In this document: positions 1 to 9,250 of the stretch, piece by piece
Position numbering within the stretch: the first letter of the stretch is position 1
Layout: every line of letters starts with the position of its first letter
Virus record (IMG/VR): IMGVR_UViG_3300029469_000071
Length of the DNA stretch: 9,744 nt
Direction: 5' to 3' (one strand)
DNA from: a virus
Taxonomy: Duplodnaviria > Heunggongvirae > Uroviricota > Caudoviricetes
Program-made: the position numbers and the translations under genes
The notes under the pieces: generated by a model
What the model was told of the DNA's origin: nothing
Seen by the model: only the letters and a program-made list of their open reading frames with translations
Database searches by the model: none

Positions 1-69
1 CTTGCCGGTGTACATCCAGAACGTCGTTCCCGCACCTTTCGTTTTTGCCAGTGGATTTGGTGTGGTCAT
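1..69 (-). CDS. Major tail protein V-like, N-terminal 23 codons only (gene runs off the left edge)
   Basis: Minus-strand translation from ATG at 67-69 gives MTTPNPLAKTKGAGTTFWMYTGK, which resembles the lambda gpV N-terminus (KGAGTTLW motif, recalled). Perfect AGGAGG Shine-Dalgarno at 72-77 (minus) 5 nt upstream. Position downstream of U matches lambda gene order. Confidence 0.6.
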   Translation of the reverse strand, partial: MTTPNPLAKTKGAGTTFWMYTGK

Positions 70-80
70 TGCCACCTCCT

Positions 81-482
81 TTAATTCGTGTACGTGATCT
101 GGTACGTGATTTCCGCCATCGCCCAGGTGGCCATCTCATTATCACGTTGATAGTTAAAACCGAGAGGGATCAGGGTGTCGATGAGTCCGGAAAGTGCCGG
201 TATATCATTCAGGGCCGGGAAAATGGTGCTCTCCATCCACATATCCAGCTCTGAATCCGGTGCCTGTGCCCGGATGAAGACAGCAATATGCAGAACAGCC
301 TGCCAGTCATCTTCATCCGTCATTTTTCCGGTGTACTGAGCATCACTCAGCCACACCGCCACGGCAGGCAGTTCCTGCGCATCAATAAATGCCGGAAGCC
401 CGTCAAAAAACGTGGCGCTGTCTCCACACTGTTCCCGAAGGCGTGCCAGTACGGCCTGGCGGATTTGTGTATGTCGGTTCAT
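81..482 (-). CDS. Minor tail protein U-like (tail terminator), 133 aa
   Basis: ORF-track protein contains ...ATFFDGLPAFIDAQELPAVAVWLSDAQYTG...DSELDMWMES...DIPALS..., co-linear with lambda gpU (131 aa) as recalled. Start chosen at ATG 480-482, which overlaps the Z stop (TGA 479-481) as ATGA, rather than the ORF-track start at 494. Confidence 0.8.
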   Translation of the reverse strand: MNRHTQIRQAVLARLREQCGDSATFFDGLPAFIDAQELPAVAVWLSDAQYTGKMTDEDDWQAVLHIAVFIRAQAPDSELDMWMESTIFPALNDIPALSGLIDTLIPLGFNYQRDNEMATWAMAEITYQITYTN

Positions 483-1057
483 CGGGTCAGCCATAACCTC
501 AGTTGTTGTTTCAGTGCATACCCCAGCTGTTTCGGCATTTCCGCAGCAATGATGCGGTCGCGGGCATCTTCAAATGTCTGTGTCAGCGGTCCGGACAGCG
601 GGATTTTCACCACATCAATGGGGTAACGATTTTTGCCATCGATACGCCGCATCACATGCCAGCGACCATTCGCCAGTTGCTGAATAAACGCATCCCGGAA
701 AAGATATTTACCCACCTTCAGCACACTGCCACGGTACTGCAGTTTTCCACCACGCCGGGCCAGTCTGACCCGGGCTGTCCCCAGCTTAATGGCAGGCAGA
801 TTGCCCCGGTTAACGCGGATCCTGGCCGTCATTTTTCCTGACGGACTGGCTTTAAACACCCGGACACGCTGACGTACCAGTTTCAGGGGGATCCCTTTCA
901 CCTGGTTATCTCCCGCAACGGTATTCCCGGCAACCTGCCGGGTGGCAACCGAGACCGCTTTCTGTGCCACACGGTTTATCGCCCATGCGCTGGCCTGTGG
1001 CACCATACGGGTATCAAGGCTGTTCAGATTGCGGATGGCATTCTCAAGCCCCTTCAT
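479..1057 (-). CDS. Minor tail protein Z-like, 192 aa
   Basis: Same length as lambda gpZ (192 aa) with co-linear similarity (MKGLENAIRNL..., ...NGRWHVMRRIDGKNRYPIDVVKIP..., ...LGYALKQQLR...). GAGGTG Shine-Dalgarno upstream of ATG 1055-1057. Confidence 0.85.
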   Translation of the reverse strand: MKGLENAIRNLNSLDTRMVPQASAWAINRVAQKAVSVATRQVAGNTVAGDNQVKGIPLKLVRQRVRVFKASPSGKMTARIRVNRGNLPAIKLGTARVRLARRGGKLQYRGSVLKVGKYLFRDAFIQQLANGRWHVMRRIDGKNRYPIDVVKIPLSGPLTQTFEDARDRIIAAEMPKQLGYALKQQLRLWLTR

Positions 1058-1068
1058 CCCACACCTCT

Positions 1069-1344
1069 TTACTCAATAAAGATCATTGGCTTACCGTTAA
1101 AGCGTTCATGCCGTGTGACCGTCCATTGTTGTCCGTCATAAACAACGCGATCCCCGCGCCGTGGGCGGTATCCCGAAGAAAACACCACCAGAGAGACCGC
1201 AGGTCCGGACAGAGCATTCAGCTCTGCCAGTGTTTCTCCCGGGATCACAGTCATATCGACATCATTAATCGAGGCTGTCTTTCCCATCTTTCTGACCGTG
1301 ATCGCATCCATACGCGCTGCCAGCCGGGAAAAGGGATCAGACAT
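1069..1344 (-). CDS. Head-tail joining protein, FII-like, 91 aa
   Basis: Sits between the head genes and Z as in lambda; N-terminus MSDPFSRLAARMDAITVRKMG resembles lambda FII MADFDNLFDAAIARADETIRGYMG (recalled). Start overlaps the stop of the upstream gene (1337-1344). Confidence 0.6.
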   Translation of the reverse strand: MSDPFSRLAARMDAITVRKMGKTASINDVDMTVIPGETLAELNALSGPAVSLVVFSSGYRPRRGDRVVYDGQQWTVTRHERFNGKPMIFIE

Positions 1345-1660
1345 TGAGTTTTACCGGCACTTCTTCTGCACTGGTTCCGGCATCTGCCCAGACAACCCCG
1401 ACCAGCGGATCAGAGCCGCTGTTAGTCAGCTGAACTTTTCCGGACTTCAGATAAACCTTCTTACCCGTTTTCATGTCATCCGTTTTCAGCTTAGGCAGCA
1501 TAAACACACCTTCGGTCATGCCGTCGCCTGTTTCACCCTGTGGAATATCGGTCAGCGCCACCGCAAAAACATCGCCCACCTGCACCAGATCTCCGCTGCT
1601 GATGGCTGCACTGGCAACAATCGCCACCGTTTTTCCTTCTTCTACAAAATTCTTTGCCAT
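1337..1660 (-). CDS. Small head-associated protein, 107 aa (DUF2190-like, possible decoration/cement protein; function uncertain)
   Basis: Start set at the internal ATG 1658-1660 (MAKNFVEEGKT...), which has a GGAG Shine-Dalgarno 6 nt upstream; the ORF-track start at 1705 lies inside hairpins. Glycine- and valine-rich, beta-type composition; sits immediately after the capsid gene. Family assignment is from memory only. Confidence 0.5.
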   Translation of the reverse strand: MAKNFVEEGKTVAIVASAAISSGDLVQVGDVFAVALTDIPQGETGDGMTEGVFMLPKLKTDDMKTGKKVYLKSGKVQLTNSGSDPLVGVVWADAGTSAEEVPVKLNV

Positions 1661-1703
1661 AACTGTCTCCGCACAGCCCCGTTCAGGGGCTGATTTCAGG
1701 TAC

Positions 1704-1723
1704 AAAAAAAGCCCTTACGGGCC
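1704..1723 (-). terminator. Candidate rho-independent terminator or attenuator just downstream of the capsid gene
   Basis: On the minus strand: GCCC-GUAA-GGGC hairpin (GNRA tetraloop, plus 1711-1722) followed by a 7-U run (plus A-run 1704-1710), between the capsid stop (1747) and the next gene start (1660). Confidence 0.4.
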
Positions 1724-1746
1724 ATCAGAGTTGTTGTCTGCGACGT

Positions 1747-3705
1747 TTACGCCGTACATTTCACCAGACCGCGGTGATCAACTGGCGCGACACCGGCGTC
1801 AATACGCACTTTCGTTGTCACGCCATCCACACTGAAGCCCTCCATCTGATCAATATATGGCGTATCCACACCGTTGAGATAAGCCACTTCAATCGTATCG
1901 GAGCCTTTTGACGCAGCCAGGTAGAAGGTGGTCTGGCTGTTATCATCAAGACGAGGCTCTGCAATAACGGTCGCAAAATCTTTCACCGGGTTAATAATAC
2001 CGGCGTTAATGTCAGCCCCCTTGACACTTGAGGAGCGAATGACCTGGTTAGCAACAGACTCCATCGCCGTCGGTACCAGTACGAACGCAGGACGAATATT
2101 CAGATGACGCTCCCCCTCTTTCTGAACGCGCATCAACTGGCGGGCTTTATCCAGCGATGCCACGTCCATTGCAGCGCTCTCCAGTACGTTTGCATGTTTC
2201 GCTTTATCGAACAGACTTACATTATCTGTGGAGATTTTCGGGTTAGACGTCAGAATGGCATAAACCAGATCGGCAATAGTGGATTTCGCCGCACGGCCCA
2301 GTTTCATCGGGACATCGGTCAGCATATTCAGATCATCATTGATAATGGCCTGACGGGTGATACTGAACAGCTCGCCATAGGTCGCCAGTGCAATAGTGGC
2401 CTGTTTATCTCCGGTGGTGACGTATTTATATTCCGCCCCTTCACGCACCTGACGCAGAGCACTGAAGCCCCCCATACCCACACGATGGGCAATTTTAAAA
2501 TCAGACAACTGACCTTTCCGCGTCCACTGTTCATAGGTTTCAGGGGCATCTTCCCAGCCCTGCAGAATGGCTTTGTTCGCAACATCCAGCAGAATATTAC
2601 CGAAGTCAGACGTACTGTGTGTGAACGCCGCACCGACCATCTGCATCGGGTTATAACTGGAAACACCAATACCACGTTCAGTCAGTGACATACGGGCATA
2701 TTCACGCAGGGTCATCCCGTTGTAGACATTATCACGTTCGGTTTTTTCAAATCCGGCACGCGCCATCAGCGCCTGGCGGATCCCGTCCCCCACAAAATTA
2801 CCGTTACCGGCATAAATATGAGCCGGGGTATTTTTATTGGATGGCGTGGACTCGCGCCCCATCTCGTTCAACAGCTTTTCGCGGGCCTGCTCCAGCGAAC
2901 ATTCAGGATCGGCAAGACACTGAGCCTGCAGCGTCTGATAACGCCCGCCAAACATGGCAAACAGATCATTAATACCGTTTACACGCGCTTTTTGCTCTGC
3001 CAGTACCTGCGCACGGATACTGTTTTCATCCACCACGGGTGCTGCTGCCTGCACTGGCGTCCGGGAGGCTTCAGATTCATTATCCTGTACGCGTGGAGCA
3101 CTGTTGCGTGGCGGAGTAATCATGTTTCGAATGGATTCCGGCATCTTTTTAAATTCCTCTGTACGTTTTGACTGAATACATGCCATTGCCTTAACGGCTG
3201 GCGTTACCTGATCAGCAAATCCATGTGCCAGACATTCGGCACCGGACATCCAGGTCTCATCCGCCAGCATGGCAGCAATTTCATCGGTGGTTTTCCCGGT
3301 TTTCTGTGCATAAGCGGGTAACAGAACCGCCTCAACCTTATCGAGCAGGTCGGCATAGGTGCGCATGTCCTCCGCATCACCGCCCGTAAAGCCAAATGGT
3401 TTATGAATCATCATGAAGGTGTTTTCCGGCATAATGACCGGGTTTCCCACCATCGCAATGACCGACGCCATTGACGCCGCCACACCGTCGACATAAACGG
3501 TAATGGACGCACCATGTGTTTTCAGCGCATTAAAAATGGCGATGCCTTCAAAGACATCGCCACCCGGTGAATTAATATGGAGATTAATGTGGGTGATATC
3601 GCCCAGTGCATTCAGATCACTGATAAACTGCTTCGCTGTAACACCCCAGAAACCAATCTCGTCATAAATATAAATATCCGCGTCACTCTGGTGACCAGCC
3701 TGCAT
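1747..3705 (-). CDS. Prohead protease (ClpP/S49-like) fused to HK97-fold major capsid protein, 652 aa
   Basis: N-terminal part has a ClpP-like peptidase signature (ADIYIYDEIGFWGV...INLHINSPGGDVFEGIAIFNALK...VDGVAASMASVIAMVG). C-terminal ~320 aa is capsid-like. Start set at ATG 3703-3705 (MQAGHQSDADIYIYDEIG), 14 nt after the portal stop (TAA 3719-3721); the ORF-track start at 3966 would overlap 250 nt of the portal frame. Confidence 0.75.
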   Translation of the reverse strand: MQAGHQSDADIYIYDEIGFWGVTAKQFISDLNALGDITHINLHINSPGGDVFEGIAIFNALKTHGASITVYVDGVAASMASVIAMVGNPVIMPENTFMMIHKPFGFTGGDAEDMRTYADLLDKVEAVLLPAYAQKTGKTTDEIAAMLADETWMSGAECLAHGFADQVTPAVKAMACIQSKRTEEFKKMPESIRNMITPPRNSAPRVQDNESEASRTPVQAAAPVVDENSIRAQVLAEQKARVNGINDLFAMFGGRYQTLQAQCLADPECSLEQAREKLLNEMGRESTPSNKNTPAHIYAGNGNFVGDGIRQALMARAGFEKTERDNVYNGMTLREYARMSLTERGIGVSSYNPMQMVGAAFTHSTSDFGNILLDVANKAILQGWEDAPETYEQWTRKGQLSDFKIAHRVGMGGFSALRQVREGAEYKYVTTGDKQATIALATYGELFSITRQAIINDDLNMLTDVPMKLGRAAKSTIADLVYAILTSNPKISTDNVSLFDKAKHANVLESAAMDVASLDKARQLMRVQKEGERHLNIRPAFVLVPTAMESVANQVIRSSSVKGADINAGIINPVKDFATVIAEPRLDDNSQTTFYLAASKGSDTIEVAYLNGVDTPYIDQMEGFSVDGVTTKVRIDAGVAPVDHRGLVKCTA

Positions 3706-3718
3706 CCTGAACCAGGAA

Positions 3719-4201
3719 TTATTCTTCGGACTGGTCGTCGGTGTGCTGCGGCTCCTGTCGTTTCGTTGCGGCACTGCTGCCTCCTTTATCACTGGCCGGA
3801 TCGGTATCAAATACCAGATCCAGCTTGCGGTTTTCATCAATTTCGGCCTTGCGCCGACGTTTGACATCATCCGGATTACGACCACCAGCACGTACCCAGT
3901 CTGATTCTGTCGCCGCTCCACCACGAATCTGGATTTTCCAGGCCTCAGCCTCCTTAACAGGGTCAATCCACGGCATCACTGGTCCGGAATACACCGCGGT
4001 ATACAGTGAAGAACGGTCAAGATCGCGGGGTAGCCTGATAACACCGGATGCCACAGCCTGTTTCAGCCAGGCACGATACATCGGGCGGGTGACGGCACCA
4101 ATAAACCAGTCCTGCAGGATCAGGTAGCCATCAGTAGACTCAACCAGTTCCTGACGCTGGGCGCTGTACCTTCTGCCCGTAAGGTGAATGGTAAGGCGCT
4201 T
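3719..4201 (-). pseudogene. Portal protein (lambda gpB family), C-terminal ~160 codons only; 5'-truncated
   Basis: Minus-frame translation ...[20 protein letters not shown]...IDPVKEAEA... matches the recalled lambda gpB C-terminal region (...MFLCWLEEAIVRRVVTLP...IDGLKEVQEA...). The frame is open only to 4201 (in-frame stop at 4202-4204), whereas intact portals are 400-530 aa. Confidence 0.6.
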
Positions 4202-5368
4202 TCAGCGGATATAACACTGACGCCGAAAGATATTGGTACGCTTAACTCAACAACAATGTCATTCAGCGGTGGTGCTGGTTGGTTCAAATTAGCAACGGTA
4301 ACCATGCCACAGGCGAGTTCTGTTGTTTCAATTACGTTGATTGGTGGCGCGGGATTTAACGTGGGGTCACCTCAACAGGCAGGTATATCTGAACTTGTTT
4401 TGCGTGCAGGTAATGGTAATCCGAAGGGGATTACTGGTGCTTTATGGCAGCGCACATCGACAGGGTTTACAAATTTTGCCTGGGTCAATACATCTGGTGA
4501 TACTTACGATATTTACGTTGCAATCGGAAATTATGCGACTGGTGTAAATATTCAATGGGATTATACCAGTAATGCCAGCGTAACGATTCATACGTCACCA
4601 GCATATTCTGCTAATAAGCCGGAAGGGTTAACGGACGGTACAGTTTATTCACTCTATACGCCATCAGAGCAGTTTTATCCGCCTGGCGCACCAATCCCGT
4701 GGCCATCAGATACCGTTCCGTCTGGTTATGCCCTGATGCAGGGGCAGACTTTTGACAAATCTGCCTACCCGAAACTTGCAGCCGCTTATCCGTCAGGCGT
4801 GATCCCTGATATGCGTGGCTGGACGATTAAGGGCAAACCCGCCAGTGGTCGTGCCGTATTGTCTCAGGAACAGGACGGCATTAAATCGCACACCCACAGC
4901 GCCAGCGCATCCAGTACGGATTTGGGGACGAAAAACACATCGTCGTTTGATTACGGAACCAAATCCACGAATAACACCGGGGCGCATACCCATAGTATTA
5001 GCGGGACTGCAAATAGTGCCGGTGCGCACCAACACAAGAGTTCCGGTGCATTTGGTGGCACGAACACGAGCATTTTCCCTAATGGTTATACCGCGATTTC
5101 AAATCTAAGCGCGGGGATTATGAGCACAACAAGCGGTAGTGGCCAGACTCGTAATGCAGGGAAGACATCATCAGATGGTGCTCATACCCACTCGCTGTCC
5201 GGCACTGCTGCAAGCGCAGGCGCACATGCACATACTGTCAGTATTGGTGCTCATACGCACTCCGTTGCGATTGGTTCACATGGACACACCATCACCGTTA
5301 ACGCTGCTGGTAACGCGGAAAACACCGTCAAAAACATCGCATTTAACTATATTGTGAGGCTTGCATAA
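4184..5368 (+). CDS. stfQ: Side tail fibre protein, C-terminal receptor-binding fragment (5'-truncated), 394 aa as read from a GTG
   Basis: Tail-collar-like motif ([36 protein letters not shown]) followed by repeated GAHTHS / GAHAHT / GSHGHT His-rich motifs typical of Stf and T4 gp37-like fibre tips. The ORF opens with GTG, has no convincing RBS or promoter, and abuts the portal fragment. Symbol is from recalled K-12 Qin synteny. Confidence 0.7.
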
Positions 5369-6631: not shown

Positions 6632-6947
6632 AGTGAGACTCTATACGAAATTGGTGTTCATATCATAATGCATCTCAGAAAATAATTATGATTATTTTTG
6701 TGCATATTTGTATGTACACGTTCGAAAATAAACGAATGCGTATGCAACCCCGTAATTTTGGTGAGACCCAAAATCGATTTTGTGAAAAATGGCTTTAACT
6801 CGGTTTGTTTTTCGAGTTCCGGGCGGACTCAAGGAAGAAGAATAGTGTTGCGTGTTATTTTAACCAGATTTCAAGTTGTTTGGTCGTGGAAAAGTGGAGC
6901 AAAATGTTGTTAAAGTGGAAAAATGATAAAAAAGTAAGTTTATTATA

Positions 6948-7181
6948 TTACATTTTACCATTTAAATTTTGGTTGTCTTTAAGAACTGATATCGCTGTTT
7001 GTAATAATTCTTTGTTATCCAGCCATGATTTTTTCTTTATGTTTCCTTCAATGTAATCAAGCAATGTTCTGGTATTGATAGGTCTTCCCTGTTTTGCTAC
7101 TTCCACTACAGCATCCCCTAGGATAATTCTTACTTCAGGAAGCTGCGCAGGGAACCACTTTAGGGTGTCTTTTGATTTCAT
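6948..7181 (-). CDS. ydfK: Small prophage-borne cold-shock-induced protein YdfK/YnaE family, 77 aa
   Basis: Start set at ATG 7179-7181 (MKSKDTLKWFPAQ...), which has an AAGGAA Shine-Dalgarno 8 nt upstream; the ORF-track start at 7214 adds 11 residues with no RBS. Sits between pin and ydfJ. Identity and the cold-shock annotation are recalled, not verified. Confidence 0.7.
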   Translation of the reverse strand: MKSKDTLKWFPAQLPEVRIILGDAVVEVAKQGRPINTRTLLDYIEGNIKKKSWLDNKELLQTAISVLKDNQNLNGKM

Positions 7182-7450
7182 GAAGATATTCCTTAAAATA
7201 TTATTGATTTTCATTGCGATATTGTATGTCTGATTCAGGATATGTTGACTTATACATCGGTTTTGTCTGGGTTATTGGATATGCCAATCCCTAATTTTAT
7301 TAGGGCATGACTAAAAATGCTGAATATGATAAGGAGAGATGTGATTATCAGTATGCTGTTCATATAGCCTCGAATTAGTAATGTGTTATATATGATATAG
7401 TTGACAATTTTTATCTTGGGTGTTCTTAAAGTTCGTAGATAAACATTGTC
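7182..7450 (-). promoter_or_regulatory. AT-rich upstream/leader region of ydfK; putative promoter and structured 5' UTR
   Basis: About 270 bp of strongly AT-rich sequence upstream of ydfK with several -10/-35-like hexamers on the minus strand (for example TTGTCA at 7401-7406 read on minus) and a perfect 7-bp hairpin CCCTAAT-TTT-ATTAGGG at 7289-7305. No single promoter can be singled out from sequence. Confidence 0.3.
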
Positions 7451-7682
7451 GTTTCAGGTATACAGGAATGCTAACAGGTGGCAGCAAAAATCAGGCGGTT
7501 TATGGCGCAAGCTGAAGCGGCAACTGCAAACTATCTTATGCAGAGACTCTACACGGATTGGGTTTAAAAGTATACATAGATAACAGTTTTTATCTGAAGA
7601 AGAAAAATATCAAGGTGATATAGCCTATATGCCTATGATGCGGAGGAATGAATGTGATGGGAGTGATGTATCTGAATAGTTG

Positions 7683-7723
7683 AAAAACCGCAGACACGCC
7701 TTATGCAAGAACGTGCTGCGGTT
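7683..7723 (-). terminator. Candidate rho-independent terminator on the minus strand
   Basis: Imperfect inverted repeat: AACCGCAG-A-CACG (7686-7698) pairs with CGTG-CTGCGGTT (7712-7723) around a 13-nt loop. Read on the minus strand the stem is followed by a 5-U run (plus A-run 7683-7687 overlapping the last stem pairs). GC-rich stem inside an otherwise AT-rich region. Confidence 0.35.
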
Positions 7724-7966
7724 GGCTGGTAAATTTTTCGATAGTGTGAGTATTGAATGATTTCCAGCCGTTCTTGATTTTACGCATAAATCCATGAAAA
7801 AACTACTTATCTGTTGGGGAGTTTTTTTGGGGCATATATGGGACAGAAATAGGCCCCAGATAGACACTGAGATCGAACTTAGGATGCTTTTTAAAAAATG
7901 CAACTATCTGAAAAAACCTAGAAAACGCCAAGGAAACCACAGGATGGGAAAAAACACCTGTGAATT

Positions 7967-9250
7967 ATGGATTTCCAGTTATATTCGCTCGGCGCAGCGT
8001 TAGTGTTTCATGAAATATTTTTTCCTGAATCATCAACGGCAATGGCGTTAATTCTGGCAATGGGAACCTACGGTGCAGGTTATGTGGCGCGTATTGTCGG
8101 AGCATTTATTTTCGGCAAAATGGGCGACAGAATAGGGCGTAAAAAAGTGCTCTTTATTACCATCACCATGATGGGGATCTGTACCACCTTAATTGGTGTG
8201 TTACCGACCTATGCACAGATTGGTGTTTTTGCACCCATCTTGCTGGTGACGTTGCGTATTATTCAGGGGTTGGGTGCAGGTGCGGAAATTTCCGGTGCCG
8301 GTACGATGCTGGCGGAATATGCGCCAAAAGGTAAGCGCGGAATTATCTCCTCATTTGTGGCTATGGGAACTAACTGCGGAACCTTGAGCGCAACGGCAAT
8401 CTGGGCCTTTATGTTCTTCATTCTCAGTAAAGAGGAACTGCTGGCGTGGGGATGGCGTATACCGTTCCTGGCGAGCGTTGTCGTGATGGTCTTTGCTATC
8501 TGGTTGCGTATGAATCTGAAAGAAAGCCCGGTCTTTGAGAAGGTTAACGACAGTAACCAACCGACAGCAAAACCTGCACCTGCTGGTAGCATGTTCCAGA
8601 GCAAATCCTTCTGGCTGGCAACAGGGCTGCGTTTTGGTCAGGCGGGTAACTCCGGGTTAATTCAGACTTTCCTTGCAGGCTATTTAGTGCAGACGTTATT
8701 GTTTAACAAAGCAATTCCAACAGATGCATTGATGATCAGTTCGATTCTCGGCTTTATGACCATTCCGTTCCTTGGTTGGTTATCCGATAAAATTGGTCGC
8801 CGGATCCCGTATATTATTATGAATACCTCCGCGATTGTGCTGGCATGGCCAATGCTTTCTATCATTGTAGATAAAAGCTATGCCCCGAGCACCATTATGG
8901 TTGCACTGATTGTGATTCATAACTGTGCGGTGCTGGGATTATTTGCTCTGGAAAACATTACCATGGCAGAAATGTTCGGCTGTAAAAACCGCTTTACCCG
9001 GATGGCTATTTCTAAAGAAATTGGTGGTCTTATCGCTTCCGGTTTTGGTCCTATCCTGGCGGGTATTTTCTGCACCATGACGGAATCCTGGTATCCGATC
9101 GCCATTATGATCATGGCATATTCAGTGATTGGTTTAATCTCTGCGCTGAAAATGCCAGAGGTGAAAGACCGTGATTTAAGTGCGCTGGAAGACGCTGCGG
9201 AAGATCAACCGCGTGTTGTAAGAGCTGCGCAACCTTCCAGAAGTCTGTAA
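7967..9250 (+). CDS. ydfJ: MFS transporter (metabolite:H+ symporter family), N-terminally truncated at the prophage junction; probable pseudogene or remnant, 427 aa
   Basis: Contains the MFS loop motif GKMGDRIGRKK and multiple hydrophobic spans. The ORF begins at ...DFQLYSLGAALVFHEIFFP..., which aligns with the end of TM1 in relatives such as KgtP ([20 protein letters not shown], recalled), so the N-terminal tail and most of TM1 are missing. In-frame stop at 7961-7963 and no Shine-Dalgarno before the ATG. Confidence 0.8.
   Translation: MDFQLYSLGAALVFHEIFFPESSTAMALILAMGTYGAGYVARIVGAFIFGKMGDRIGRKKVLFITITMMGICTTLIGVLPTYAQIGVFAPILLVTLRIIQGLGAGAEISGAGTMLAEYAPKGKRGIISSFVAMGTNCGTLSATAIWAFMFFILSKEELLAWGWRIPFLASVVVMVFAIWLRMNLKESPVFEKVNDSNQPTAKPAPAGSMFQSKSFWLATGLRFGQAGNSGLIQTFLAGYLVQTLLFNKAIPTDALMISSILGFMTIPFLGWLSDKIGRRIPYIIMNTSAIVLAWPMLSIIVDKSYAPSTIMVALIVIHNCAVLGLFALENITMAEMFGCKNRFTRMAISKEIGGLIASGFGPILAGIFCTMTESWYPIAIMIMAYSVIGLISALKMPEVKDRDLSALEDAAEDQPRVVRAAQPSRSL

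Follow-up and report, generated by a model that had tools for sequence, protein, structure and literature searches.

In a 9,744-nucleotide (nt) stretch of DNA from a tailed bacteriophage of the Caudoviricetes (IMG/VR record IMGVR_UViG_3300029469_000071; this whole stretch is called the window below), one minus-strand gene at positions 1747–3774 carries a ClpP-like prohead protease, a scaffold-like segment and an HK97-fold major capsid protein in a single frame of 675 codons plus a stop, with a predicted product of 73.6 kDa. Comparison of this gene with its relatives suggests that it is a lambdoid head-building gene probably expressed as two nested products, a full-length protein of 74 kDa and a scaffold-capsid protein of 51 kDa that would begin at a conserved internal ATG at the end of the protease part, with proteolytic maturation in addition.

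An intact fusion gene of a known family

The minus-strand frame is uninterrupted from position 3966 down to the TAA stop at 1747–1749, and the first-pass annotation, made from the sequence letters, had read it as a ClpP-like protease, a scaffold-like middle part and a capsid domain in one open reading frame (ORF). Domain searches bear this out: in the numbering of the 652-amino-acid (aa) version that starts at the in-frame ATG 3703–3705, Pfam places a peptidase fold at the N-terminus (CLP_protease, residues 23–168, E 4e-36) and a capsid domain at the C-terminus (Phage_capsid_4, residues 354–649, E 2e-54), and returned no family for the middle part. The protein scores 985.1 bits against NCBIfam NF045540, the ClpP-like prohead protease/major capsid protein fusion protein (cutoff 475), with residues 9–651 aligned to positions 2–651 of the 652-position model, and 215.8 bits against NF045542, the ClpP-related head-maturation protease (cutoff 120); PHROG 133 matches it along its full length. 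Its score against NF045541, a second type of prohead protease/major capsid protein fusion, is 399.9 bits, below the cutoff of 525, and only residues 200–649 of the 652-aa form align; the window protein is thus a full-length member of NF045540 and not a member of NF045541. The gene order of NF045540 is also found here, with a portal remnant upstream and DUF2190/Phage_cement_2, Gifsy-2-family, Z and U genes downstream. Fusion of protease, scaffold segment and capsid protein in one gene is already known, both as this curated family and in print for Pseudomonas phage MD8.

The ORF is genuine and undamaged: its 675-aa product is shared, at 100% identity, with a protein cluster of 292 members (P0003), thousands of near-identical copies exist, and more than 100 representatives match it over nearly the full length in a library clustered at 50% identity. 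For comparison we assembled 88 related loci spread over the Gammaproteobacteria, taken from 80 species-level genomes and seven phage records, with the window as the remaining one; their diversity came from a scan of genome_contigs, a first scan of viral_contigs having given almost solely near-identical Escherichia coli prophages. At 83 of these loci a single fused frame is intact and spans 640 aa or more, and two of the remaining five end at contig ends.

The full-length product most likely starts at GTG 3774

The first-pass annotation had started the protein at ATG 3705, giving 652 aa, and this is the only one of its gene coordinates that needs changing. A GTG at 3772–3774, 69 nt further upstream, lies 5 nt behind a strong Shine-Dalgarno (SD) sequence (AAGGAGG, 3780–3786, −11.6 kcal/mol) within the 3′ end of the portal ORF, and gives the 675-aa product. 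When the 83 fused genes (50–100% identity) were aligned codon by codon, a start codon was found at this column in 69 and an SD match in 57; ATG 3703–3705, which encodes Met24 of the 675-aa form, is an ATG in 55 relatives, only two of which have an SD-like sequence before it. The conserved SD sequence thus favours GTG 3774, most likely the true start, and ATG 3705 is probably an internal methionine codon; the Prokaryotic Genome Annotation Pipeline (PGAP) likewise annotates the 675-aa form.

With this start, the portal and fusion genes overlap by 56 nt (3719–3774). About ten singleton database proteins of 1158–1159 aa (P0007–P0017) run through portal, protease and capsid in one frame at 99% identity, which implies a one-base frameshift within the overlap; sequencing errors or decay of the prophages probably account for them.

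A conserved internal start at the protease/tether boundary

The first-pass annotation had left it unclear whether the capsid protein arises by self-cleavage or from an internal in-frame start, and had pointed to positions 3000–3100 for the latter. In the alignment of 83 genes that interval holds no candidate; an in-frame ATG with an SD sequence does exist, slightly upstream of it and just downstream of the protease domain. This ATG, at 3142–3144, encodes Met211 (Met188 in the 652-aa numbering) at the end of the protease part and is the candidate start of a 465-aa scaffold-capsid product of 50.7 kDa. It is ATG in 83 of 83 relatives, whereas 43 of the 69 relatives with a main start codon use GTG or TTG there.

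The candidate SD sequence, AGGA at 3155–3158, lies 10 nt upstream of the ATG and spans codons 206 and 207, five codons before Met211, where the codon pair xAG-GAx reads AGGA without exception. All 83 genes have G as the third base of codon 206, although the encoded residue changes (Glu in 57, Lys in 14, Gln in 12), and this base is the most conserved of 645 third-codon positions outside Met and Trp columns (mean 0.53, 99th percentile 0.92); the second-ranked position lies in the SD sequence of the main start. Lys and Glu codons adjoining codon 206 favour A. In a set of 69 genes in which just 47% of Glu, Lys and Gln codons have G as their last base, codon 206 ends in G in every one; these genes form 31 clusters at 80% identity, for which the naive probability of such uniformity is 3e-11. 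The internal initiation region and the main start are predicted to be about equally accessible (76th versus 72nd percentile). Such conservation suggests that the internal start yields a scaffold-capsid protein devoid of the protease. Proteolysis would still be needed to remove the scaffold part, and the comparative evidence favours internal initiation and proteolysis together.

Two other methionine codons were considered as internal starts and rejected. Met137 is ATG in 76 of 83 genes with an SD match in 40, but that match derives from a conserved GGDAxDM motif, stands 2 nt from the ATG and lies inside the protease fold between His124 and Glu173; Met176 is ATG in 51 with an SD match in 16. Neither has exceptional synonymous conservation.

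The same boundary in distant fusions and in a split homologue

We found the same arrangement in a second family of fusions. A scan of viral contigs with two of its members, gp8 of Stenotrophomonas phage S1 and gp9 of RcDormio, gave 69 distinct fused genes, 34–100% identical to S1 gp8. These NF045541-type proteins are homologous to the window protein from the tether onward, whereas their N-terminal protease is unlike its ClpP-like one: the ClpP SPGG motif occurs in only six, RcDormio gp9 matches Pfam Peptidase_S78 (the HK97-type protease) with no ClpP match, and Pfam gave S1 gp8 neither a protease match nor ClpP. Most of the 69 therefore apparently carry a protease of another type. The boundary column is nevertheless ATG in 66 of them, with an SD match in 51, and no other column behaves alike. 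The residues before the ATG differ (QEHT, KEGN, KGKT, PENP, LETP and others), yet GGAG or AGGA is kept 6–9 nt from it.

In Faecalibacterium phage FP_Epona the protease is a gene of its own, unlike in the fused window gene. Here gp38 is a separate S78 protease of 176 aa whose TAG stop lies within TAGGAGGT, the SD sequence of gp39, and the ATG of gp39 follows eight nt after it. The 530-aa gp39 comprises tether, helices and Phage_capsid_4, is homologous to window residues 221–672 and starts at the protease/tether boundary; what is an internal site in the fused genes therefore serves as a genuine gene start in this relative.

Fusions of this architecture are widely recognised and are routine in the annotation of actinobacteriophages. 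Taking both families together, we think it rather likely from these comparisons that the protease-scaffold-capsid fusions of tailed phages, with ClpP-type, S78-type or other proteases and from Gammaproteobacteria or diverse metagenomic viruses, are nested genes as a general rule, and that the ratio of the two starts would set the amount of protease per procapsid. A statement of this rule was found neither in the MD8 paper nor in the records of six annotated relatives nor in the searchable literature.

Domain architecture

Pfam, NCBIfam, alignment to ClpP structures and invariant columns together place the ClpP-like protease domain at 3202–3639 (residues 46–191; numbering is that of the 675-aa form from here on). 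Ser101 (codon 3472–3474, in GVAASMAS) and His124 (codon 3403–3405, in MIHKP) are invariant and align with catalytic residues of ClpP, and an invariant Glu173 (codon 3256–3258) occupies the position of the catalytic Asp; in this family of phage proteases the triad would be Ser-His-Glu, or the enzyme would be a Ser-His dyad. After a conserved segment (residues 193–219) comes a tether rich in Pro, Ala, Ser, Thr and Gln (3031–3117, residues 220–248), which is variable, indel-rich and polymorphic in length and is predicted to be disordered, with a predicted local distance difference test score (pLDDT) below 50. A conserved three-helix segment resembling a scaffold or delta domain follows (2851–3027, residues 250–308; block-mean pLDDT ~76–93), its helices spanning 40–63, 70–78 and 84–98 in the numbering of a 465-aa AlphaFold2 (AF2) model, and then a second flexible and variable segment, STPSNKNTPAHIYAGN (2803–2847, residues 310–324), with indels and pLDDT below 50. 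The remainder (1750–2802, approximately residues 325–675, roughly 39 kDa) is the HK97-fold major capsid domain, identified by Phage_capsid_4 and modelled with pLDDT mostly above 85.

The AF2 model of residues 211–675, computed from an alignment of 132 sequences, has a mean pLDDT of 79.8 and consists of a disordered tether, a three-helix domain, a disordered segment and an HK97 fold; Foldseek matched its capsid domain to encapsulin and phage capsid shells with probability 1.0. Modelling of the full 675 aa from 27 sequences gave a mean pLDDT of 40 and no usable capsid part. Sequence and profile searches of the Protein Data Bank had only ClpP chains among the matches listed, and no solved close relative of the capsid domain was among them.

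A model of expression and assembly

Building on the computed domain identities, the intact fusion and the conservation of both start sites, we infer use of the internal start, a ratio between its product and the full-length one, their co-assembly and a cleavage position, as follows. Initiation at GTG 3774 would give the full-length 74-kDa protease-scaffold-capsid protein, and initiation at ATG 3144 behind AGGA the 51-kDa scaffold-capsid protein. Their capsid and scaffold parts could let both proteins assemble together into the procapsid, which the protease would thereby enter as part of a subunit. Once concentrated inside, it might remove itself together with the scaffold segment, probably by a cut in the flexible stretch around residues 310–324, whose predicted disorder and indels make it the most likely region of maturation cleavage. 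The capsid protein left over, roughly 39 kDa, would then expand and be decorated by the DUF2190 cement protein encoded by the next gene.

Several points weigh against this model. The internal AGGA is weaker (about −6 kcal/mol) and farther from its ATG (10 nt) than the main SD sequence (−11.6 kcal/mol, 5 nt), so the internal product could be minor; SD-like sequences whose mean energy is comparable also arise from other conserved peptide motifs of the gene; and Met211 is replaced in some relatives below 50% identity (by Ala in P0249 and P0272). The cleavage position is taken solely from predicted disorder, and the searchable literature yielded no experimental datum, be it an N-terminal sequence, a gel or ribosome profiling, for any member of the family. 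Nor do stand-alone scaffold-capsid proteins of ~470 aa that begin at the Met211 equivalent (P0352, P0286, P0402 and others) represent split genes: we rejected them as such, as those checked lie at contig ends.

These last are database ‘capsid proteins’ that begin MPE... or MPK... (P0352, P0286, P0402, P0403, P0429, P0492). P0352 is on a 1501-nt contig and P0402 is 75 nt from a contig end, making both gene-calling artefacts, and the related P0501 runs off its contig. That gene callers pick the Met211-equivalent start in such contigs is telling, yet it is no evidence of a split gene.

The chief alternative to nested expression is that only the full-length 74-kDa protein is made, each subunit bringing its own protease and scaffold and the capsid protein arising purely by self-cleavage; the AGGA-ATG would then serve otherwise, for instance as a translational pause after the protease domain or as a structural Met-Pro. 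The strength of the main SD sequence (AAGGAGG) agrees with this, as do the similarly strong SD-like strings that conserved peptide motifs produce elsewhere in the gene. Packing would also be feasible, since 415 copies of ~36 kDa of internal protein amount to ~15 MDa, by our own estimate roughly a third of the lumen of a T=7 procapsid; the scaffold load of P22 is ~10 MDa. We nonetheless consider a single product unlikely, because it leaves unexplained why no third-codon position in the gene is better conserved than a synonymous G, why an ATG with an SD sequence stands at the same boundary in fusions that mostly lack the ClpP motif and have unrelated upstream residues, and why the boundary site is a true gene start in FP_Epona. 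That protease and capsid are separate genes joined only by a sequencing frameshift in the window, an outcome that would have undone the first-pass reading, is refuted by conservation of the single frame in 83 of 88 diverse loci, by the identical 292-member cluster and thousands of near-identical copies, by the matches to more than 100 clusters at 50% identity and by the existence of a curated fusion family.

Comparison with known systems

The window protein shares 99% identity with its counterparts in the viable phages mEp460, cdtI, Ayreon and Tritos, 77% with those of Stx-phage and VT1-Sakai, 70–72% with those of Gifsy-2 and Fels-1, and 57% with those of Pseudomonas F10 and MD8. The same full-length family includes the NF045540/PHROG 133 proteins of mEp460, cdtI, the Stx-phage and VT1-Sakai relatives, Gifsy-2, Fels-1, F10 and MD8 (gp5), whose genes stand in the order portal, fusion, DUF2190 cement, head-tail, Z, U. 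According to the MD8 paper, a single gene encodes protease, scaffold and capsid protein, and an internal start is not mentioned there (PMC8508860); none is annotated in the six annotated records of relatives.

The logic proposed here is that of lambda C/Nu3, UL26/UL26.5 of herpes simplex virus 1 (HSV-1) and gp17/gp17.5 of the archaeal virus HFTV1 (bioRxiv 10.64898/2026.09.13.751334), in which an in-frame start after the protease gives a protease-less scaffold sharing the same C-terminus. Those systems differ in that their capsid protein is encoded by a separate gene, whereas the window gene would combine scaffold and capsid in its short product; its likeness to the lambda C/Nu3 class is therefore at most one of function, and it is not a member of that class. 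A further point of comparison is HK97, where the delta domain, which serves as scaffold, forms the N-terminal part of gp5 ahead of the HK97-fold capsid protein until the prohead protease cuts it off; the predicted internal product is organised alike. The HK97 protease, gp4, comes from a separate gene, while the ClpP-like protease of the window is covalently upstream in the same frame. The lambda protease is not of the ClpP type; the HK97 enzyme has an S78/herpesvirus-like fold and owes its packaging to its binding of the delta domain. By analogy, the mechanism we propose would combine the delta-domain logic of HK97 with the nested-gene logic of lambda, HSV-1 and HFTV1.

Hairpins downstream of the fusion gene

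The first-pass annotation had noted a terminator-like hairpin at 1704–1723 on the minus strand, and it is exactly as described: a GGCCC-GTAA-GGGC(T) stem at 1711–1723 with a GTAA loop, followed by a run of seven T at 1704–1710, 23 nt past the stop. Within 110 nt of the stop, 75 of the 83 relatives have a GC stem with a T run, formed from 25 different stems, against 14 of 415 control windows (3%), and the GenBank record of mEp213 annotates the hairpin as a rho-independent terminator. The element thus has the GC stem-loop, U run and conserved position of an intrinsic terminator, which Q antitermination may override.

Whether it attenuates transcription, so that capsid mRNA exceeds the mRNA of the downstream head-tail and tail genes, as the first-pass annotation had suggested, is a more doubtful matter, and we hold this reading only tentatively. 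The conserved stem and T run and the mEp213 annotation speak for it; attenuation is not assured, however, because lambdoid late operons are transcribed by a Q-modified, terminator-resistant polymerase, and a Q-family antiterminator gene lies upstream in related prophages. The next gene moreover encodes the cement or decoration protein (SD GGAG 1667–1670, ATG 1658–1660), probably needed at levels close to those of the capsid protein.

Just 5′ of the SD sequence of that gene lies a second hairpin (CAGCCCC-TGAAC-GGGGCTG, 1674–1692, minus strand). Folding of each sequence separately shows its structure kept in 39 of 40 enterobacterial relatives, against 13% of shuffles, and its 32 distinct stems imply many compensatory changes; RNAalifold on a MAFFT alignment found nothing, the stems being out of register. 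The spacer before it (1693–1703) is a conserved AU-rich ATACCTGAAAT; in many predicted folds its CCT is able to base-pair with AGG in the downstream SD sequence. The second hairpin is a candidate element of mRNA processing or stability, or of translational control of the cement protein. Together with the AU-rich spacer it fits mRNA processing with 3′ and 5′ stabilisers equally well as attenuation, and a possible alternative reading of the two hairpins is a site of mRNA processing.

Prophage context

The source prophage is lambdoid, of the mEp460/cdtI/Gifsy-2 type. On the minus strand, window positions 1–4168 hold a head/tail segment of U, Z, Gifsy-2-family, DUF2190 and fusion genes and the last ~150 codons of the portal gene (3719–4168), which is truncated at the junction with Qin tail-fibre sequence; from 4166 the plus strand carries the Qin prophage end stfQ′, tfaQ, pinQ, ydfK and ydfJ′. 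Positions 1–4168 are 99.6% identical in DNA to intact E. coli prophages, in which PGAP gives the fusion gene the same name. Of 5426 complete E. coli genomes, 1810 contain at least 80% of positions 1–4400, and none contains the junction of portal and Qin.

In this particular prophage, which is rearranged and defective, the intact gene may be a silent remnant that does nothing, a view compatible with the function we propose for the family and one that we find somewhat likely. The portal gene breaks off at 4168, where the stfQ/tfaQ/pinQ segment adjoins it in opposite orientation, neither terminase genes nor a late promoter occur upstream within the window, and no sigma-70-like promoter was found in 1–4300. 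The ORF has, against this, no inactivating change (it is 100% identical to P0003), and the other half of an inversion elsewhere in the genome could supply functions in trans.

At the junction itself (4160–4175), the truncated portal gene on the minus strand meets the tail-fibre segment on the plus strand at a GTA (4166–4168). K-12-like Qin joins a truncated gene for a DUF1441 terminase small subunit to the same stf position, and GTA is common to all three sequences. Two partners at one breakpoint beside pinQ suggest invertase-mediated recombination at secondary sites, as an inversion in the window and a deletion in K-12; a search with a gix/hix-like consensus and one for inverted repeats found no invertase crossover site at the 4166 junction.

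Among the head-tail genes, a 91-aa product encoded at 1069–1344 on the minus strand is named ‘Gifsy-2’ (‘ATP-binding sugar transporter from pro-phage’) by Pfam, ‘DNA breaking-rejoining protein’ by PGAP and minor tail protein in PHROG 153; judged by gene position, the Pfam and PGAP names look like inherited misnomers. At the other end, positions 6650–9250 after pinQ are AT-rich (GC 0.34–0.40), hold ydfK and ynfT, and are the prophage/chromosome boundary; the counterpart of the ydfJ transporter ORF at 7967–9250 is marked by PGAP as missing its N-terminus in K-12-like genomes.

Implications

The fusion itself is not new, being a curated family that is common in E. coli prophages and already in print; what our analysis adds is modest, namely a corrected start and a well-supported computational case for nested expression. 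Annotations of prophages often place the start of the fusion gene 23 codons too short or too long. Codon 206 offers a clean and cheap experimental handle in the form of a single synonymous change. If the internal start is true, thousands of prophage genes now annotated with no nested coding sequence would have to be corrected. Such a start would also explain how protease dosage is controlled in such phages, show how a protease can be delivered into the procapsid without a separate targeting interaction, and extend the nested protease-scaffold scheme of lambda and the herpesviruses to genes that include the capsid protein.

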